Source: an uncultured Phycisphaerales bacterium (GTDB lineage Bacteria; Planctomycetota; Phycisphaerae; Tepidisphaerales; Tepidisphaeraceae). Taken from it: a DNA stretch of 64,000 bases. Both the position numbers and the translations under genes were made by a program. Positions 50,543-62,776 of this stretch are shown in pieces (the stretch's first letter is position 1; every line of letters begins with the position of its first letter). The stretch is from assembly GCA_963755915.1 (NCBI GenBank), contig CAVWLP010000003.1, forward strand, positions 1 to 64,000, read 5' to 3'. The notes under the pieces were generated by a model. That model saw only the letters and a program-made list of their open reading frames with translations. It searched no databases and had not been told where the DNA came from.

Positions 50543-51763
50543 CTACGCGATCGACCCGAGCGGACGGGCGCTGATCGGCAAAGGTTTCAGCGGTTTGTTT
50601 TGAAGGATGAGCGGCACGTCGACCACTCGCCGGAAGAGCAAGCGGAAGGTTGAACCGACTCCGACCCGCGAATCGACGGTGAGAGTGCCTCCCAATAATT
50701 TAGCTGCCTGCGATGCAATGGCGAGGCCCAGTCCCACGCCAGATTCGCCGTGAACGTCTCCTCTTTTGAATGCCTCAAAAACCGTCTCCAAGAGCGCGGG
50801 CTCAATTCCAGGCCCCTCATCCAGTACCCACAGCACCGGACCATCTGACTGAGCGTCTTTTCCGAATCCAACGCGGATATCTCCACGGCTGATGTATTTT
50901 ACGGCGTTGCCCACGAGATTTTGAAGCACCAAGGTGAGCAACTCGCCATCTGATTCGACAACCGTGCCAGGGCGCATCTCGACAATGAGCCGCGCTCCTT
51001 TGGCGTCAGCCTCGCGCGAGAATTGCCCGAGTATTTTTGTCGCCAGTGCATGTAAATCGACGGGCGACAGCGTTATCGCTTTGCCGGATTTCCGGAGTCG
51101 TTCGTGGTCCAGTAGTCGACGCATGCCCATGACCGTGTCATGGATGCATTGCTGCGCGTGGTCAAGCGACTCTTCCGCTTCTGGGAAGCCGCCTGCCCGG
51201 TTCAAATCCAATCGGAGCGCTTGCAGTGTGAGCGTTACACTATTCAGGTTGTTGTTGAGGTCGTGAGAGAGGAACGAGAGAAACTTCAACTCCGTCTCGG
51301 CAGCAACGCGAAGTTGATTCTTCTGTTGGTCCACGAGGGCAATTACGGATCGCTGGAGCATCACGTCGATAGCGGCGTGGAGTGCCGCGGATTCCATGGC
51401 TTCCATCCGCCGGTTTAGCGCCTGTTCAATGTGCAATACAGTGATGGCCCTGAGCAGCCGATCCTCCTGCATGACCTCGACCACGTCGAGGTTCAGCCTG
51501 AAACGTGAAAGGCCCTGGGACGGTGCGCGGCTTACAAGCTCTCGAATCACGTCCGGGTCATCCGACGCAAGGGCTTGAGCGATCGCGAGCAATAGCTGGG
51601 GCGTAGAATTCTTTAATTCGTCGGATGTGAGATGCTGCATCTGCGGCATCGCCGCTCGCACAGCGGCGTCCCAATCCAGCGTTATCTGGTCCGCGCCAGT
51701 GCGCAGGATTCTTGCCAACTCGGGGAATGGGCGATGCGTGAGTTGTGCCAGCAGTGGATTCAT
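50543..51763 (-). CDS. Cytoplasmic sensor histidine kinase
   Basis: H box LSHDLNN, N box NLVGNAVKY, DEGPGI, GVGLGL, GSTF; no TM segments. Confidence 0.93.
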   Translation of the reverse strand: MNPLLAQLTHRPFPELARILRTGADQITLDWDAAVRAAMPQMQHLTSDELKNSTPQLLLAIAQALASDDPDVIRELVSRAPSQGLSRFRLNLDVVEVMQEDRLLRAITVLHIEQALNRRMEAMESAALHAAIDVMLQRSVIALVDQQKNQLRVAAETELKFLSFLSHDLNNNLNSVTLTLQALRLDLNRAGGFPEAEESLDHAQQCIHDTVMGMRRLLDHERLRKSGKAITLSPVDLHALATKILGQFSREADAKGARLIVEMRPGTVVESDGELLTLVLQNLVGNAVKYISRGDIRVGFGKDAQSDGPVLWVLDEGPGIEPALLETVFEAFKRGDVHGESGVGLGLAIASQAAKLLGGTLTVDSRVGVGSTFRLLFRRVVDVPLILQNKPLKPLPISARPLGSIA

Positions 51764-51999: not shown

Positions 52000-52705
52000 G
52001 TGACGATCGCAGCCCGCACGGGCAACAAAATTTTGGACCGCCTGCCAGAGCAGGATTTTCATCGAGTTTTCTCTCAATTGGAAAAAATTGCGCCCGATGT
52101 TGGCGAGGTCGTGGCCTATCCGGACAAAGAGCCAAGCGCGTTCACTTCCCAATCTCGGGCGTGCTTTCTTCGATGGTGGTCCTTGAAGACGGGTCGATGA
52201 TCGAGGCATCCACAATCGGAAACGAGGGCATGGACGGCCTCTATCTTATGGCTGATCCACTGGCCAACCCCTACCGCATCAACGTTCAGGTACAAGGCGA
52301 CATGCTCTGTATGTCGGCGTCAGCGTTCCGGCGTGCGTTGTCCGAGAGCCACGCGCTGACGCAACTTTTGCTCAGATACGCGATGGTGCTGATCCAGCGG
52401 GTGCTCAAAATGGAGCGTGCATTCAACACCACACGATCGAGGAACGAATGTGCAGATGGTTGCTTGAAACGGCTCACCGCAAGGGGGAAGATCATTTCGG
52501 CCTAACCCAGGAATTTCTGAGCGACATGCTCGGCGTCCGCCGACAGAGCGTAAATTTGACGGCGCGCATCCTCCAACAGGTCGGCCTGATCAAATATCAC
52601 CGGGGCGAGTTGACGATTCTTGACAGGGCCGGTTTGGAAGAATCTTCCTGCGAGTGTTTTCGTGTCACCAGCCAGATGTACGAACGCATGATGAGGCTTA
52701 CGTGA
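52000..52705 (+). CDS. Crp/Fnr-family regulator (two frameshifts)
   Basis: NKILDRLP, IGNEG, MCRWLL, LTQEFLSDMLGVRRQSV, SCECF. Confidence 0.9.
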
Positions 52706-53188
52706 ATATCGCCTTGGGATGCGATCATCGCGGATACGCCGCCAAGCGGGAACTATTGCCGCAATTGCGAACTCTCGGCTATCAAGTAGAGGACTTTGGT
52801 TGCCCTACCTCTTCCGGCGTCGATTACGCGGACATCGCCTATCCCTTGGCGTTGGCGGTTGCCGCGGGGCAATGTGAGCTTGGAATTCTGATCGGGTGCA
52901 ACGGGATGGGCATGAACATGGTCGCGAATAAAGTCCCGGGCGTGCGCGCCGCGTCGGCAGACGATGAATTCGCTGCGCAGCGCCCGTGAAAAGTATCACT
53001 GCAATATCATCTGCTTTGGCGCGGATGTCGTCGGCGGGAATGAGATTCGAAAAATCGTGGAGGTGTTTTTGCAGGCAACGGTCTCCCCACGCCATGCACG
53101 ACAAGTTACAAAAATGAGGGAGATCGAGGAAATGGTGGCCAAAGTTTATGTCGCAAAGCACAATCAACCGTTCGTGTCGCTCGTTTGA
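52702..53188 (+). CDS. rpiB: Ribose-5-phosphate isomerase B family (frameshift near 52980)
   Basis: IALGCDHRG, DYAD, ANKVPGVRAA, RHARQV.K. Confidence 0.85.
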
Positions 53189-53195
53189 GACGACG

Positions 53196-53576
53196 ATGAA
53201 GACTCAAGGCGAAATCGAAAGCGCGATTTCGGAAGGCATCGGGCGTTTTGAACAGGAATACATGGGCCGTGGCCCCAAGGACGTTCACGCGCACTTGATC
53301 GGCGATCTGCTTGTCGTCCGGCTCAAGGGTGTTTTGACAGCAGCCGAGCAGCACCTCGTCAAGACGCTACCAAGTGAAAAGGGCCGGGATCTTCTCAAGC
53401 AGGTGCGCAGCCATTTGATCGAAATAGCGCGACCGCAGTTGGCGGCGATGATCGAGGGCATCGCGGGCGCCACGGTTGTGAGCCTGCACCATGACATCAG
53501 TACAGTGACCGGTGAAGAAGTAATTCTCTTCACCCTTTCAAGTTCGCCGCTTTGCCGCGAGGTGAAGAAGAGATAG
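53196..53576 (+). CDS. DUF2294 (MpsC-like) protein, copy 1
   Basis: KTQGEIE.AIS, FEQEYMGRGP, LKGVLT.AE..L, SLHHDIST.TGE. Confidence 0.9.
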   Translation: MKTQGEIESAISEGIGRFEQEYMGRGPKDVHAHLIGDLLVVRLKGVLTAAEQHLVKTLPSEKGRDLLKQVRSHLIEIARPQLAAMIEGIAGATVVSLHHDISTVTGEEVILFTLSSSPLCREVKKR

Positions 53577-53684
53577 ACAATTCGATAAATCGACATTGTC
53601 CATTGCTATTAGCCGTTGGCACGCGTACCGTGTGACGTTGCGCAGGAAGTGTTCGTGCCTGTGCGTATTTGAAATATAAAGTCG

Positions 53685-53789
53685 TCGGACGACTAAATAG
53701 ACGGCATCCCGGTCTCCGGGCGGCCGGTTGCAGAGTAAGCCGACGTGGTTCCGCACCGTAAGGGTGTTGAACCACGTCGGTTCTTTTTT
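53685..53789 (+). promoter_or_regulatory. Conserved leader RNA with intrinsic terminator, copy 1
   Basis: TCGGACGACTAAATA (53685-99), GAGTAAGCCGACGT (53733-46), stem 53738-51/53769-82, T tract. Confidence 0.8.
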
Positions 53790-53817
53790 GGCTTAAACGA
53801 AGTCGGAAACGTACGTA

Positions 53818-54225
53818 ATGCCTAATTCCACGCAAACAATGGCTGAAGAGATTGGCCAGGTCGCAGCAGCGTTTCAGCAGCAAAGAACCGGCATCGAGCC
53901 CAAATCCGTGCATGTCGTGCTTAGAGGAGACACCTTGGTGGTGACACTGCAGGGCGCACTGTCGCTGGCCGAGCAGGCTTTAGCGCGGAGTGCCGAAGGC
54001 GCGGCGGAAGTACAAGAGCTTCATCGTCAGTTGTTTCTCACGGCGTTCGACAGGCTCCGAGCGGAAATCAGGCGGATCACGGGGTTAAACGTGTGTGAAG
54101 CGGCCGAAGTCGAATCAGCGGCTGGGGCAGCAATTCAGGTTCTCGCCAGTGGAACGATGGTTCAAGTATTCCAACTTTCCGGAAAGTTGCCCCCCGGAGA
54201 TTTCAGCTCTGGGGACAAACTGTGA
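53818..54225 (+). CDS. DUF2294 (MpsC-like) protein, copy 2 (divergent)
   Basis: FQQQRTG..PKSV.VVL..DTLVVTL.GALS.AE..LA, EIRRITG, GTMVQVF.L. Confidence 0.8.
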   Translation: MPNSTQTMAEEIGQVAAAFQQQRTGIEPKSVHVVLRGDTLVVTLQGALSLAEQALARSAEGAAEVQELHRQLFLTAFDRLRAEIRRITGLNVCEAAEVESAAGAAIQVLASGTMVQVFQLSGKLPPGDFSSGDKL

Positions 54226-54334
54226 AGCCACGGTCTCTGGAGTTGCGCTAAAAGTGCCAGTGATTGTCAATTTTAGTTTTACGGACCCAAGGCAATTTCG
54301 CTTCTGGGCCGAAGACTTTTTTAAGGAAATGGAC

Positions 54335-54874
54335 ATGTTAAGTAAGAACTCGGTTATCGCGTTATTCGATCAACACACTCAAGCCGAAAACGCAGTGAAG
54401 GAACTGCAGCAGGCGGGCTTCGACATGAAGTCGCTGTCTATCGTCGGAAAGGATTACCACACCGACGAGCACGTCGTCGGATATTACACGACCGCCGATC
54501 GCATGCAGTATTGGGGCAAAAATGGCGCATTCTGGGGCGGAATCTGGGGCCTGCTCTTTGGGTCAGCCCTCTTTGTCATCCCGGGTATCGGTCCGATTGT
54601 GGCAGCCGGGCCGGTGATCGCGTGGATCGTCGCCGCTCTCGAAGGTGCGGTCGTTGTCGGTGGCCTCAGCGCTCTTGGCGCCGGGCTCTACAGCATCGGC
54701 ATTCCGAAGAAAAGCATTTTGCAATACGAAACTTCGCTGAAGGCAGGGAAGTTTATGCTGCTGGTGCATGGAACCCCTGAGGAAATGAGTCGAGCTTCGA
54801 CGATCCTCAAAACCACCGGGGCATCGGAATGCCAAGAGCACATGGCGGATGCACCGGTTGCCGCGCTTGTTTGA
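54335..54874 (+). CDS. General stress membrane protein (YflT/DUF1269-like)
   Basis: H.QAE.AVKELQ..GFD...LSIVGKD, IPGIGP...AGP, YE..LKAGK. Confidence 0.8.
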   Translation: MLSKNSVIALFDQHTQAENAVKELQQAGFDMKSLSIVGKDYHTDEHVVGYYTTADRMQYWGKNGAFWGGIWGLLFGSALFVIPGIGPIVAAGPVIAWIVAALEGAVVVGGLSALGAGLYSIGIPKKSILQYETSLKAGKFMLLVHGTPEEMSRASTILKTTGASECQEHMADAPVAALV

Positions 54875-54953: not shown

Positions 54954-55640
54954 ATGATGAATTCTCAGCTATCGGGCACACACCAGAAGGTTTACCAGCA
55001 TCTTTTCCAGCATCCGATGCCGCACAACCTCCAATGGCGAGAAGTCTGGTCAATGCTCGGTGCAATGAAGGATGCACAGGCGATCGGAGGAAGCCAAAGG
55101 CAATCTGAAAGTCGAGCGAAATGGTCAGGTCCTCACGCTGCACCGTCCGCGCGGCAAGGACTTGGCGGACAAACAGGAATTAATGAAGGTCCGCCATTTC
55201 CTGGAGCGCTCTGAATCGCCATTGCCAAAGCCCGAGCCGGGAGGCACCCACTTATTGGTTGTCATCGATCATCGCGAGGCGCGAATATACAGCGCGGAAA
55301 TACATGGATCGGTTCCGCAACGGATCAAGCCTTATGACCCTTTCGGCTTCGATCGAGATCTGCATTACAACCAGGACGATTCCAACGGCCAGCGAAAACC
55401 GGAGAAAAAGAGCTTCTACGAGGCAGTCGCCAAAACGCTGCGCGGGGCGAAGCAGATTTTAATGTTCGGCAGCGCCACCGGCGCCAGCAGCGCGATGGAA
55501 GCGCTGGTTGAGGAGTTGAAGCATAATCACCCCGATGTCGCAGAGCGGATCATCGGCACCTTTACTGTTGATGAGCATCATCTAACTGAAGATCAGTTGC
55601 TGGCTAAGGCGAGGCGCGCTTGTTTTTGCCTGCACATAAG
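54954..55640 (+). CDS. Host-attachment/eRF1-like family protein with a small N-terminal domain (frameshifted; 3' end uncertain)
   Basis: LFQHP..HNL.W.EV + VVIDHREARIY, FYEAVA..L.GA..IL.FG, LTEDQLLA.AR. Confidence 0.6.
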
Positions 55641-55677
55641 TCTGCGATGTCTGCGGCGAATTGACATAAAGATAGTT

Positions 55678-58202
55678 ATGACCACATCAACGATGTCCAA
55701 ACCTCCTGCGTCGACGGCACGCCCCCACGAACTGGCCCGGTTGCTTCAGCAATACGGATGCGGGCCAATTCATTTCACCGGCACGGATGGATTTTACGAG
55801 AGGCACCTCGTCTTCGACACCGTGAAAGATTTGGCCACCACCAGCCCGCGTGAACACTTCGAGGCAGTCGCCCGCTCGGTTCGCGATGTTCTCTCGCAAC
55901 GCTGGGTGGCCACGGAGAAGACCTATGAGCGCGAGAATCCCAAGCGCCTTTATTATCTCTCCATGGAATTCCTCATCGGCCGTTCGCTTGGCAACAATGT
56001 CACAAATCTCCTTCTCGACCCTCTGGCAAACCAGTTCGCGGCGATGAAGAAGCTCGATTGGCTGGAACTGATCGAAAAGGAGCCCGATGCCGGCCTGGGC
56101 AACGGCGGACTGGGTCGGCTGGCCGCCTGCTTTCTGGATTCGTTGGCCACGATGCAGCTTCCGGCCATGGGTTACGGCCTGCGTTATGAGTACGGCATTT
56201 TCAGACAATCCATCAAGAACGGATGGCAGCAGGAAAGCCCGGACAATTGGCTGCGTCGCCCGGACCCATGGGAAGTCGCCCGCCTGGATCGAGCATGTCA
56301 GCGTGAACCTGAACTGTTCGTTCAAAATGACCGGACGGAAACTTGCACGCCATTCCGGGCACGCAGTCCAATCTGATCGGTATTCCCTATGACCGGCCGG
56401 TGGTCGGATACGGCGGCAAGACCATCAACACGCTCCGCCTTTGGGCCGCGGCAAGTTCCGGATTATTTTGATTTCCAGAGATTCAGCGGCGGCGATTTCG
56501 TCGGCGCGTTGGCGGAGATGCTGTCGGCGGAATCGCTGACCCGCGTCCTGTATCCCGACGATTCGACCAGCCGTGGGAAGAGCCTGCGCTTTGTGCAGGA
56601 GTATTTTCTCGTCGCCTGTTCGCTGGCCGATCTTGTCCGCCGCTTTCGCGAAACCAATTCCGATTGGACCCAGTTGCCCGAGCATGTCGCCATCCAGCTC
56701 AACGACACGCATCCCTCGCTGTCCGTCCCTGAGCTGATGCGAATTTTGCTCGATGATGCCCATCTGGGATGGGACCAAGCCTGGGACATCACGAAGCGGA
56801 CGCTGGCCTATACGAACCACACGCTTGTTGCCCGAAGCCTTGGAGAAATGGCCTGTCGAGTGGTTCGAGAAGCTGCTGCCGCGCCACCTGGAAATCATTT
56901 ACGAGATCAACCGGCGACTGCTCGATGATGTGCGTGCAGAAATTCCCAGGCGACGAGGGCCGCGTGGAGCGCATCAGCCTCGTCGAAGAGACGGACGGCC
57001 GCAACATCCGCATGGCGAACCTGGCCATCGTCGGCTCGCACAGCACCAACGGCGTGGCCGCGATTCACTCCCGCTTGCTCCGAACCACGACCGTGAAGGA
57101 TTTGGCCGACATGTTTCCGGAGCGGTTCAACAACAAGACCAACGGCGTGACGCCGCGCCGCTGGCTGCTGCTGTCGAATCCCATCGCTGGCCCGCGTGAT
57201 CACGCGAAGCGATCGGCGATGGCTGGATCACTGACCTCGATCAATTGCAGAAACTCAAGCCGCTGGCCGAATGACAAAGGCTTTCGCGACGCCTTTCTGA
57301 AGGCCAAACGCGAGGCCAAAGTGCGGTTTGCCGATTGGCTCAAGGCTAGCACCGGGCAAGCCGTCGATCCCGACACCATCTTCGATTGCCAGATCAAGCG
57401 CATCCACGAATACAAGCGGCAACTGCTCAACGCGCTGCGCATCGTCGTGCTTTACAACCGGCTGCGCGCAAATCCGGAACTCAATATGCCGCCGCGGACG
57501 TTTTTCTTCGCCGGCAAGGCCGCGCCGGCCTATCACCTGGCAAAGGTCATCATCAAGTTCATCAACAACCTGGCCGGCGTCATCGACGGCGACCCGGCTA
57601 TGCGAGGCAAGCTCAAGGTCGTTTTCCTGCCGGAATATTCTGTCACGCTGGCCGAGCGGCTGATTCCCGCCAGCGATGTCTCCAACCAGATTTCGACCGC
57701 GGGCTACGAAGCCAGCGGCACCAGCAACATGAAGTTCATGATGAACGGCGCTCTCACGCTCGGCACGCGCGATGGCGCGACCATCGAAATGGCTGAGGAA
57801 GCCGGCGAGGAAAACTTCTTCCTGTTCGGCCTGACGGCCAAGCAGGTGGCGGATAGCCGGAGCTGGTACAACCCACTACTGGCATTACGAAAACGAGCCG
57901 GAGACGCGTGCCGCGCTGGACCTGATTTTTTCCGACCATTTCAGCCGCGATGAACCCGGCATCTTCGAGCGAACTGCGCGAGACGCTCTTCTGACGGGCG
58001 GCGATCACTACATGCACCTGGCGGATCTGAAGTCCTACCTCGAGCGCGGACCAGCAGCTGGTCGAGTTGTATGCCGAGCAGGATGCCTGGGCGCGGAAGG
58101 CGATATTGAACGTGGCCGCGTCTGGGAAATTCTCCAGCGACCGAACCATCGCGCGAATATGCGTCGGAAATCTGGAACGTGAAACCATGCCCGGTGGCAT
58201 GA
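55678..58202 (+). CDS. glgP: Glycogen/maltodextrin phosphorylase (many frameshifts)
   Basis: [54 protein letters not shown]. Confidence 0.96.
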
Positions 58203-58218: not shown

Positions 58219-59880
58219 ATGACGATTTCTCCACTCGCGGGTAAACCGGCTCCCAAGGAAATGCTGGTCGATCTGGCTCGCCTCGAACGCGAGTATTACG
58301 AGCGGCAGCCCGATTTAGCTGATCCCAACCAAATGGTCAGCTTCGGCACCAGCGGCCATCGCGGCTCGTCACTGCGCGGCACATTCACCGAGGCCCACAT
58401 CCTGGCCATCACCCAGGCGATTTGCGATTACCGGCGCAGGCCGGAAATCAGACGGCCCGCTTTACATGGGCAAGGACACGCACGCGCTGTCCGCGCCAGC
58501 CCAGCGCACGGCCTTGGAAGTTCTGGCGGCCAACGGTGTCGAGACCATCATCCAGCCAGACGACGGCGTAACGCCGACTCCGGTCATTTCGCGCGCAATC
58601 CTCGTCTACAACCGCAGCAGGAAACAACGTCTCGCCGACGGCATCGTCATCACGCCTTCGCACAATCCGCCGGAAGACGGCGGGTTCAAATACAACCCGA
58701 CCAATGGCGGTCCGGCCGACACCGACGTGACCGGCTGGATCCAGGACTCGCGCCAACGAATTGTTGCGCAGCAACAATGCCGGCGTGAAGCGCGTCCCCT
58801 ATGCCGCCGCCCTCAAGGCGGCGACGACGCACACCGAAGATTTCATTCTTCCCTATGTCAACGACCTGCGGAACGTCATCGACATGGAAGCGATCCGCGA
58901 GCGCGGGCCTGAAGTTGGGCGTCGATCCGCTGGGCGGCGACGGCGCTGCCTTATTGGGAGCCGATCAATTCGATTTACAATCTCGATCATCACGGTCGTC
59001 AACCCAAGACAATCGACCCGCCGTTTGCGTTCATGACGGTGGACCACGACGGGCAAATCCGCATGGACTGTTCCAGCCCGTACGCGATGGCCAGACTCGT
59101 CGGGCTCAAAGATAAATACCGCGTCGCCTTCGCCAACGACCCCGACTCCGATCGCCACGGTATCGTCACGCCGTCCGTCGGTTTGATGAATCCCAACCAT
59201 TATCTCGCCGTTGCGATTGGCTATTTGCTCATCCCATCGCCCGCACTGGCCGGGCAATGCGCCGGTCGGCAAGACGCTGGTCAGCAGCAGCATGATCGAC
59301 CGGGTGGTGAGCAAGCTGGGTCGACAGCTCTACGAAGTTCCCGTTGGCTTCAAATGGTTTTCGCCGGGACTTTTCGACGGCTCTCTGTTTCGGCGGCGAG
59401 GAAAGTGCCGGTGCGAGTTTCCTGCGACTGGACGGCGCGGTTTGGACGACGGACAAGGACGGCCCGATCATGGATTTGCTTGCGGCCGAAATCACCGCGC
59501 GCACCGGCAAAGACCCGGGCGAGCATTTTCGTGATCTGACAGCCGAGTTCGGCACGCCTTATTACACGCGCATCGATGCACCCGCGACGCCGCAGCAGAA
59601 GGCGAGTCTTGCCAAGCTGTCGCCCGAAGCGGTGAAAGAATCAAGTTTGGCGGGCGATCCTATCACCGCAAAGTTGACGCGCGCTCCTGGCAACAACGCC
59701 TCAATCGGTGGTTTGAAAGTTTCGACCGCGAGCGGCTGGTTTGCGGCCCGTCCGTCCGGCACCGAAAACATCTACAAGATTTACGCCGAAAGTTTCCGCG
59801 ACCAGAAGCATCTGAAATCCATTGTGGATGAAGCTCAGCAGATTGTAAGCGGCGCGATCGCCGGACCGGCGAAGGGTTGA
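58219..59880 (+). CDS. pgm: Phosphoglucomutase (many frameshifts)
   Basis: [40 protein letters not shown]. Confidence 0.96.
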
Positions 59881-61699: not shown

Positions 61700-61804
61700 T
61701 CGGATGACTAAATAAAGAGTAATCTGGCCGAACCGCCAGAGGACTCGTTAACGAGTAAGCCGACGTAATTGAACACTCCCGTGTTCAGTTGTGTCGGCTT
61801 TTTT
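61700..61804 (+). promoter_or_regulatory. Conserved leader RNA with intrinsic terminator, copy 2
   Basis: TCGGATGACTAAATA (61700-14), GAGTAAGCCGACGT (61753-66), stem 61757-76/61781-800, T tract. Confidence 0.8.
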
Positions 61805-61843: not shown

Positions 61844-62776
61844 ATGAGAACTCCCAGTCCTTTCGCGGCACTGATCTTTGTCGTAATCCTCGCCATTGGG
61901 GGAGGTTTGGCGTTCGCCGCCTACAGCGCCGCAGCGCCCGAAAAGAGCATATGTACCGGGATCATTGCATTTGTGATTGCTGTCGTCGCCGCTCGCTCAA
62001 TCAGGGTCGCCGATCAGTGGGATAAAGCCGTGATTCTGCGGTTGGGCCAGTTCCACTCACTAAAAGGTCCGGGGCTTTTCTTCATAATACCTATTGTCGA
62101 TGCGATTCCCTACTGGATCGATACCCGCGTAATCACAACCGGCTTCAAAGCTGAAAAGACGCTGACTAAGGACACCGTCCCGGTGGACGTCGACGCAGTG
62201 CTGTTTTGGAAAGTCATCGACCCCAAAAAGTCGGCGCTGGGCGTAGCGGATTATCGGAGCGCCATAAGCTGGGCATCGCAGACCGCGCTCCGCGATGTGA
62301 TTGGAAAAACGATGCTTTCAGACATGCTGGAAGGCCGCGACAAAATCAGCGCGGTGCTGCAGAAGATCATTGACGAACGCACCGAACCATGGGGCATCAA
62401 TGTTATTTCTGTAGAGGTGAAGGACGTCTTGATTCCCCAAGCCCTTGAGAATGCCATGTCCATGCAGGCCCAGGCCGAACGAGAGCGCCAAGCCCGTGTG
62501 ATTTTGGGAGATTCGGAACGGCAGGTAGCGGAGAAATTCGCTGAAGCGTCCAAGAGCTACCAGCATAATCCGGTCGCATTTCATCTCCGGGCAATGAACA
62601 TGCTTTACGAGGGGTTGAAGCAGAATTCCACCATCGTGATCGTTCCCAGCACTGCCGTCGAAAGCATGCAGTTAGGCGGACTTGCTGGATTGACCGCCCT
62701 GACTATGGGAATCGGTCAGGACGGCGGTGGCAATGGAAAGCCGGTGCCACCCAATGAACCTGCATTGATCCGATAG
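61844..62776 (+). CDS. SPFH/stomatin-like (slipin) protein
   Basis: Two N-terminal TMs, GPGLFFIIP, TKD.VPV.VDAV, QTALRDVIG, QAQAERER. Confidence 0.93.
   Translation: MRTPSPFAALIFVVILAIGGGLAFAAYSAAAPEKSICTGIIAFVIAVVAARSIRVADQWDKAVILRLGQFHSLKGPGLFFIIPIVDAIPYWIDTRVITTGFKAEKTLTKDTVPVDVDAVLFWKVIDPKKSALGVADYRSAISWASQTALRDVIGKTMLSDMLEGRDKISAVLQKIIDERTEPWGINVISVEVKDVLIPQALENAMSMQAQAERERQARVILGDSERQVAEKFAEASKSYQHNPVAFHLRAMNMLYEGLKQNSTIVIVPSTAVESMQLGGLAGLTALTMGIGQDGGGNGKPVPPNEPALIR

Follow-up and report, generated by a model that had tools for sequence, protein, structure and literature searches.

In the BglG/SacY/LicT systems, a hairpin known as RAT overlaps the 5' arm of a terminator, and a dedicated protein stabilises this hairpin so that RNA polymerase reads through. 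One such antiterminator protein may serve several leaders. The target RNA of ANTAR proteins has two small hairpins in tandem, whose loops are hexanucleotides. HutP, which controls the hut operon of Bacillus subtilis, is thought to need a small-molecule cofactor for RNA binding, upon which termination is prevented. Transcriptional ON riboswitches include the guanidine-I, Na+ (DUF1646 motif) and Li+ (nhaA-I) classes. In the Planctomycetota gene control is little known, and we know of no described general stress regulator for this phylum.

The leader RNA described here lies between two genes in a window of 64 kb, the whole stretch of DNA that was analysed (Table 1). Both genes flanking leader copy 1 belong to MpsC/DUF2294 (PF10057, cut-off 23 bits), as the original prediction had it. 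The type A frame is open from position 53148, with the start conserved among homologues (MKTQGEIE...) at 53196. Type B is 38% identical to type A over 88 residues, and MpsC types A and B are cleanly separable by score. The two boxes of the leader, together with a second copy of both, are present at the positions first described. With 2 mismatches allowed, each box has exactly 2 occurrences in the window, against 0.08 (box 1) and 0.36 (box 2) chance matches from shuffles. The predicted spacings of 42 and 47 nt are correct when counted from GACTAAATA to box 2, and 28 nt indeed separate the end of the copy 1 T-run from the ATG of the type B gene. The inter-box stems of the two copies differ in sequence and keep their pairing, and folding bears out the 3' part of box 2 as the 5' arm of a strong terminator in both. 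With the terminator included, the minimum-energy fold is -59.5 kcal/mol for copy 1 (z = -6.1 against shuffles) and -52.5 kcal/mol for copy 2 (z = -7.3). Once the terminator 3' arm is left out of the fold, the same rod forms in both copies.

Table 1. Features of the two leader loci in the window, with coordinates on the 64-kb stretch.
Feature	Position	Strand	Basis or remark
mpsC type A, candidate trans-acting factor	53196..53576	+	PF10057, 128.7 bits
Leader copy 1, rod-shaped hairpin	53685..53743	+	fold without terminator, covariance-model scores, pair counts
Copy 1 box 1, TCGGACGACTAAATA	53685-53699
Copy 1 box 2, GAGTAAGCCGACGT	53733-53746
Copy 1 P1	53685-53688 with 53740-53743
Copy 1 P1a	53692-53694 with 53734-53736
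Copy 1 P2	53702-53705 with 53723-53726
Copy 1 P2a	53708-53712 with 53716-53720
Copy 1 intrinsic terminator and T-run	53738..53789	+	P1 3' strand inside 5' arm; hairpin 53738 to 53782, T-run 53784-53789
mpsC type B, paralogue predicted to be leader-controlled	53818..54225	+	PF10057, 59.6 bits
Leader copy 2, rod-shaped hairpin	61700..61763	+	fold; R1 score 92 bits
Copy 2 box 1	61700-61714
Copy 2 box 2	61753-61766
Copy 2 P1	61700-61703 with 61760-61763
Copy 2 intrinsic terminator	61757..61804	+	overlaps P1 3' strand
SPFH/Band-7 gene, predicted to be controlled by leader copy 2	61844..62776	+	PF01145, 119 bits

The conserved element is a rod-shaped hairpin of about 60 nt with a single variable terminal loop. 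Its outermost helix, P1, pairs UCGG with CCGA and encloses a 3x3 internal loop with A-Y-G opposite A-A-G. The helix P1a (ACU with AGU) follows, and then a purine-rich loop starting with AAA. The inner part of the rod consists of the 3-bp P1b and of P2, which is of the GGGY/RCCC type, and the tip comprises a 2x2 loop, P2a and the variable end loop. Some 45 nucleotides distributed across several internal loops are near-invariant, and the GGA in box 1 is invariant. The terminator stem begins at GCCGACG and so contains the P1 3' strand, which makes the rod and the terminator mutually exclusive. This overlapping layout is found in 220 of the 238 copies with enough flank, where a hairpin with a median of 42 nt and -31 kcal/mol extends from GCCGACG and ends in a T-run.

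The rod is a conserved structure backed by covariation in its inner helices. In alignment A4, built on 125 matches at 93 loci, paired cells make up 96.4%, 14 of 19 pairs are changed on both sides, and the observed covariation score is reached by 0 of 500 shuffles; slid partners are only 23-46% paired. The second set, A5, with 118 rows, gives 95.7% paired cells and two-sided changes in 12 of 19 pairs, and again 0 of 500 shuffles reach the score, both alignments being fitted to the model and the A5 loci being picked by a pattern that fixes P1 and P1a. The covarying helices are P1b, P2 and P2a; P1 and P1a are nearly invariant within the phylum.

Upstream of class I leaders, no strong shared sigma-70-type consensus is found. 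It is uncertain whether an A/T-rich hexamer 7-10 nt upstream of them is the -10 box; 40 of 239 copies have, upstream of this A/T-rich segment, another TATAAT-like box and an additional hairpin. The extra element in these copies is an inverted repeat, GGAGY-N(8-18)-RGCTCC, downstream of the TATAAT-like box and followed by CGGCAGAAUAUCG, exemplified in the own genome by locus L012 (C2:2128440-2128487). It represents either an added 5' transcript hairpin or an operator site. The GGCAGA part of the CGGCAGAAUAUCG segment resembles the first box of the class II leaders described below. In metatranscriptomes, one 212-nt contig with 1 mismatch spans 53791-54002, covering the type B start, and contigs of relatives span the leader part only (53679-53747). 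Such contigs do not show transcript ends, may reflect DNA carry-over and carry no meaning for the parts left uncovered, and they are at most a hint that the copy 1 locus is transcribed.

The leader is a real, uncatalogued RNA family. As the original prediction had supposed, it corresponds to no named family: Rfam 15 (4227 models) gives 0 matches in the whole window at gathering thresholds. At E <= 10, copy 1 shows weak Rfam matches only (best 17 bits against a threshold of 60) and copy 2 shows none, and the class II variants have no Rfam match either. A full-text literature search returned no description of the leader RNA and no RNA-related role for DUF2294/YbcI. One row of a published table lists 'Rhodopirellula-1' as a possible cis-regulatory motif of Planctomycetes and Proteobacteria, without Rfam accession and marked as uncertain even as RNA (Weinberg et al. 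2010, PMC2864571). Compared by that table row, 'Rhodopirellula-1' might be an early sighting of the leader.

Covariance-model searches, by which the predicted RNA was to be judged, return hundreds of further homologs with covariation. Copy 1 scores 83 bits with R1, a covariance model from 6 copies, and 76 bits with the second model, R2. The own genome holds 11 copies at E <= 1e-7 (R1). The leader is carried by 40 of the 151 nearest genomes, one of them unpublished (G414), with a maximum of 15 matches per genome; in this set it is present in 12 of 12 other genus members and in 30 of 90 members of the family. Of 151 genomes sampled evenly over the phylum, only 6 contain it. When 185,579 species genomes were scanned by pattern, at least 119 stretches were found. 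Among the 80 matches listed, nearly every record title names Planctomycetota (Pirellulales, Planctomycetaceae, Gemmataceae, Isosphaeraceae, Thermoguttaceae, Phycisphaerae, Tepidisphaeraceae and Candidatus Kuenenia), with one labelled delta proteobacterium and one 'Bacterium HR36', and R2 confirms 79 of these 80 loci. A strict pattern search of 401 phylum genomes recovered true copies only in G000 and G003; its matches in G073 and G176 look like chance. G003, a Pirellulaceae-type genome, has 7 matches. Finding the family called for a covariance model. The distribution of the family is wide but patchy.

Behind 241 leaders, the top downstream family is MpsC type B (68 cases). It is followed by GlsB/YeaQ/YmgE-like proteins (16), PAS histidine kinase-receiver proteins (10), DUF5670 (9) and DUF3309 (7), and by P-type ATPases, Radical-SAM proteins, Ice-binding-like proteins and KaiC with 6 each. 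SPFH proteins occur 5 times, and so does a small 'HFWKHAHRDW' membrane protein that is followed by phosphoketolase. CsbD, Hsp20 and RpiB are each counted 3 times, BON and DUF883 twice. A separate homology search places CsrA-like genes in 20 of 172 loci, all behind the leader and none beside it. Elsewhere in the own genome, an SPFH paralogue also carries a leader. These families make up a general-stress and carbon-reserve set without a shared metabolite. A specific tie to Na+ or MpsAB bicarbonate transport is not supported. The putative regulon is one of general stress, and in S. aureus deleting mpsC causes no growth phenotype and MpsAB does not require it (PMC6689103), so that the transporter-based name says nothing on function.

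Several neighbouring genes deserve description. Two leaders of the own genome, C3:67028-67105 (3 kb past the window end) and C2:2143645-2143722, precede HFWKHAHRDW membrane proteins, which match no Pfam family and are followed by a phosphoketolase-like gene, named by eye. In the window, the open frame after mpsC type B (54095-54874) matches YflT, a heat-induced stress protein, and ActD, and members of this family stand behind type B in 6 leader loci. The opposite strand encodes, 1.4 kb upstream of the mpsC pair (50543-51763), a histidine kinase whose N-terminal domain is RsbRD_N-like, a stressosome-type sensor module. Apparently broken genes occupy 55072-57953, 58219-59539 and also 52654-52989. 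Glycogen phosphorylase appears to be split into two frames of 434 aa (profile positions 6-88) and 394 aa (300-613), weak fragments are all that is seen of phosphoglucomutase, and RpiB, at 111 aa, is short. Either the genes carry frameshifts or the assembly contains indels; the completeness of the own genome is put at 81% and its contamination at 8%.

The RNA is coupled to MpsC both in occurrence and in gene geometry. The association with DUF2294 on which the original prediction depended is present among the 151 nearest genomes: 35 (including G414) have both, 5 the RNA only, 6 MpsC only and 105 neither, although neighbouring genes are co-inherited and co-occurrence among relatives overstates the independent support. 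The RNA is found without an MpsC match in G412, G423, G448, G472, G507 and G057, which are 81-99% complete. An MpsC gene is located within 1 kb of 105 of the 241 leaders. The two types occupy distinct positions. Type A (66 genes) lies downstream on the same strand of 0 of the 241 leaders; 54 leaders have it in divergent orientation and 22 have it directly upstream, the arrangement seen in the window. The leader occurs in the 5' region of 46 of the 51 type B genes. Across the phylum, type A proteins share 67-83% identity, a degree of conservation close to that of the RNA.

Other MpsC lineages are accompanied by variant leaders. In 9 of 13 genomes with MpsC only (5 from the phylum sample and 4 from relatives), a variant 'class II' leader stands directly after mpsC, with the form GGCAGAU ... 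AUAGGCCG and a terminator, preceded by a TTGACA/TATAAT-type promoter. The one in G072 is also matched by R2 (E = 0.015). The class II rod is analogous in build: GGC pairs with GCC, followed by an AG/AG loop, a 3-bp A/U helix and a long helix. It covaries as well: 95.1% of cells are paired, both sides differ in 9 of 16 pairs, and the observed score is reached by 0 of 500 shuffles. A metagenome scan with diverse MpsC proteins yielded 80 loci, 23 of them matched by R3 or R2. All 24 matches are on the mpsC strand, and 23 of these start 73-169 nt after the mpsC match. In 3 copies P1 is UUGG/CCAA instead of UCGG/CCGA, and further variant leaders are seen by eye in many of the other loci. The proteins encoded behind the variant metagenome leaders include GTP-dependent PEP carboxykinase in 6 of the 10 tested, the others being CBS, HAD, DUF4914 and a type-B-like MpsC.

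Additional structured segments occur in these loci. After the class II terminator, six loci (L300, L302, L303, L306, L309 and L314) contain a second conserved structured segment of the form GCUGUUGAAGUACGUU ... GGCGGAACAAGAUAC ... T-run with its own terminator, which looks like a tandem attenuator. Five others (L256, L267, L268, L273 and L297) have a third kind of leader after mpsC, in which UUAGAGUUGGAACGGG, a hairpin and AAAUAUAAGGCCG precede a terminator, and which R2 and R3 leave undetected.

The comparative evidence favours antitermination by DUF2294 over a riboswitch. Protein-dependent antitermination by MpsC-A is the best reading of how the leader is operated, and we regard it as moderately probable. 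The leader would act as a transcription attenuator. In the default state, the strong terminator would form and the downstream gene would be off, since the 4-bp P1 alone is no competitor for a hairpin of about -31 kcal/mol. In the closed state of the rod, P1 would sequester the terminator 5' arm and allow RNA polymerase to read through, turning the gene ON. The rod-closing factor would be type A MpsC/DUF2294, made from its own promoter beside leaders. MpsC-A is the best candidate because it is outside leader control, adjoins leaders and co-occurs with them, and because the RNA class tracks the MpsC lineage. Type B, the most frequent gene under putative leader control, would probably provide feedback. 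From these comparisons we infer the binding of MpsC-A to the RNA, the direction of the switch and the feedback role of type B. In the own genome, 11 leaders may control a regulon for general stress and carbon reserves.

The AlphaFold model of type A, which is confident (pLDDT 89.6), comprises a helix, a hairpin, two helices and a second hairpin. It shows no match to a known RNA-binding fold (Foldseek best E 0.019; VIA best Z 6.7). The weak Foldseek matches have E-values of 0.019-0.14 and TM of 0.36-0.45, and the VIA Z values of Bet3 (5.9), V4R (5.0) and PoxR (4.7) all fall short of about 8, the level at which a match rises above unrelated folds. The faint resemblance is to YslB, Bet3, H-NOX and V4R-type ligand-binding domains. 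A PDB sequence search with MpsC found no solved relative and one weak, irrelevant match, and a Protein Atlas look-alike search with MpsC-A gave no usable match. The prediction of an MpsC A-B complex scores 0.20 against a mark of 0.32 and speaks neither for nor against binding. The family has at least 8000 homologues at E <= 1e-5, and its members carry the JGI name "uncharacterized protein YbcI". With a median pI of 6.5, type A proteins are not basic, and this counts against MpsC-A as the operator. So do the weak matches, which lean to small-molecule-binding folds and include none that binds RNA, the six genomes with RNA and without MpsC, and the near-invariant loop nucleotides, which resemble those of riboswitch aptamers.

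Some of these observations speak for the main rival, an ON riboswitch with the rod as its aptamer for a small molecule or ion, such as a stress alarmone, an osmolyte-related ion or an inorganic-carbon species; the MpsC proteins would then be conserved regulon members or make or handle the ligand. An aptamer-like structure backed by covariation and a mutually exclusive expression platform are both found in the leader: the hairpin is long and irregular, its near-invariant nucleotides are in internal loops, and its terminator overlaps P1. Many copies per genome and a mixed regulon recall second-messenger riboswitches, a few genomes dispense with MpsC, and the weak fold matches of MpsC go to ligand-binding domains. 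However, a riboswitch needs no co-occurring outside protein, yet type A, itself never leader-controlled, adjoins leaders in a fixed geometry and is nearly always present where the RNA is. The RNA class changes along with the MpsC lineage, and the targets have no common metabolite. We consider a direct riboswitch rather unlikely, yet a serious rival. A hybrid in which the protein senses a signal and the RNA reads the protein is possible.

It is improbable that the leader answers to another trans factor, either a CsrA-like protein acting on the box 1 GGA or a small RNA, or to temperature as an RNA thermometer, the MpsC link then being shared regulon membership only. A CsrA-like factor would agree with the invariance of this GGA, with the alternative small hairpin (GUC with GAC) that would display it in a loop in many copies, and with the recurrence of CsrA-like genes in leader clusters. 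The alternative hairpin is, however, missing from many other copies, and the CsrA-like genes, confined to the minority of loci counted above, all stand behind the leader like targets; CsrA as operator is accordingly ranked low. Any such factor also leaves the fixed position of type A unexplained. A family of small terminated RNAs (sRNA genes), or a repeat with a terminator, that switches no gene is very improbable: each copy could by itself make up a complete transcript of about 110 nt, and the metatranscriptome contigs of relatives that span the leader part only are weakly in keeping with this, but a same-strand open frame of at least 38 codons starts within about 170 nt of the match end in all 11 own copies, the same families recur behind the leader across genomes, and the layout of P1 against terminator is that of an attenuator.

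Returning to antitermination by MpsC-A, a broader proposal can be made tentatively, with somewhat less confidence. MpsC/DUF2294, annotated as part of a Na+/bicarbonate transporter that does not require it, may be the founder of a new, widespread family of RNA-binding antiterminators, in which a sensor-like type A closes the rod and the leader-controlled type B feeds back. In the Planctomycetota the pair would have grown into the general stress-response regulator of the phylum, with up to 15 leaders per genome, and related pairs in other bacteria would gate genes for PEP carboxykinase and carbon handling. If this is true, a new protein family would join the small set of known antiterminators, the misleading MpsC annotation would be corrected, and the regulation of PEP carboxykinase and of related carbon genes in many uncultured bacteria would be explained. 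DUF2294/MpsC gains a concrete and cheaply testable proposed function, that of operating a terminator switch. The leader itself would mark a coherent regulon for stress and dormancy, whose members a covariance model can pick out in any genome of the phylum.

Compared with the known systems, the leader shares with the guanidine-I, Na+ and Li+ ON riboswitches an irregular conserved hairpin, a closing helix set against a terminator, a presumed default OFF state and several copies per genome. It differs from them in having no relevant Rfam match even at E <= 10 and in its tight coupling to a protein that lies outside leader control. The ANTAR-type target, which the original prediction had raised together with RAT, is not what is found here, the leader being one continuous rod and not two tandem hairpins. 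As with HutP, a small protein is encoded just upstream of the leader terminator. Unlike HutP, the flanking MpsC proteins match PF10057 only and show no relation to it in sequence or fold, the RNA is a structured rod and not a series of spaced triplet repeats, and a second paralogue, type B, is itself placed under the leader. The likeness to BglG/LicT and RAT lies in a leader hairpin that overlaps the 5' arm of an intrinsic terminator. In contrast to BglG/LicT, the flanking MpsC proteins lack CAT and PRD domains (a Pfam scan of both gives PF10057 only), the short RAT hairpin is replaced by a multi-loop rod of about 60 nt, and in place of sugar operons there would be a stress regulon with up to 15 targets per genome.
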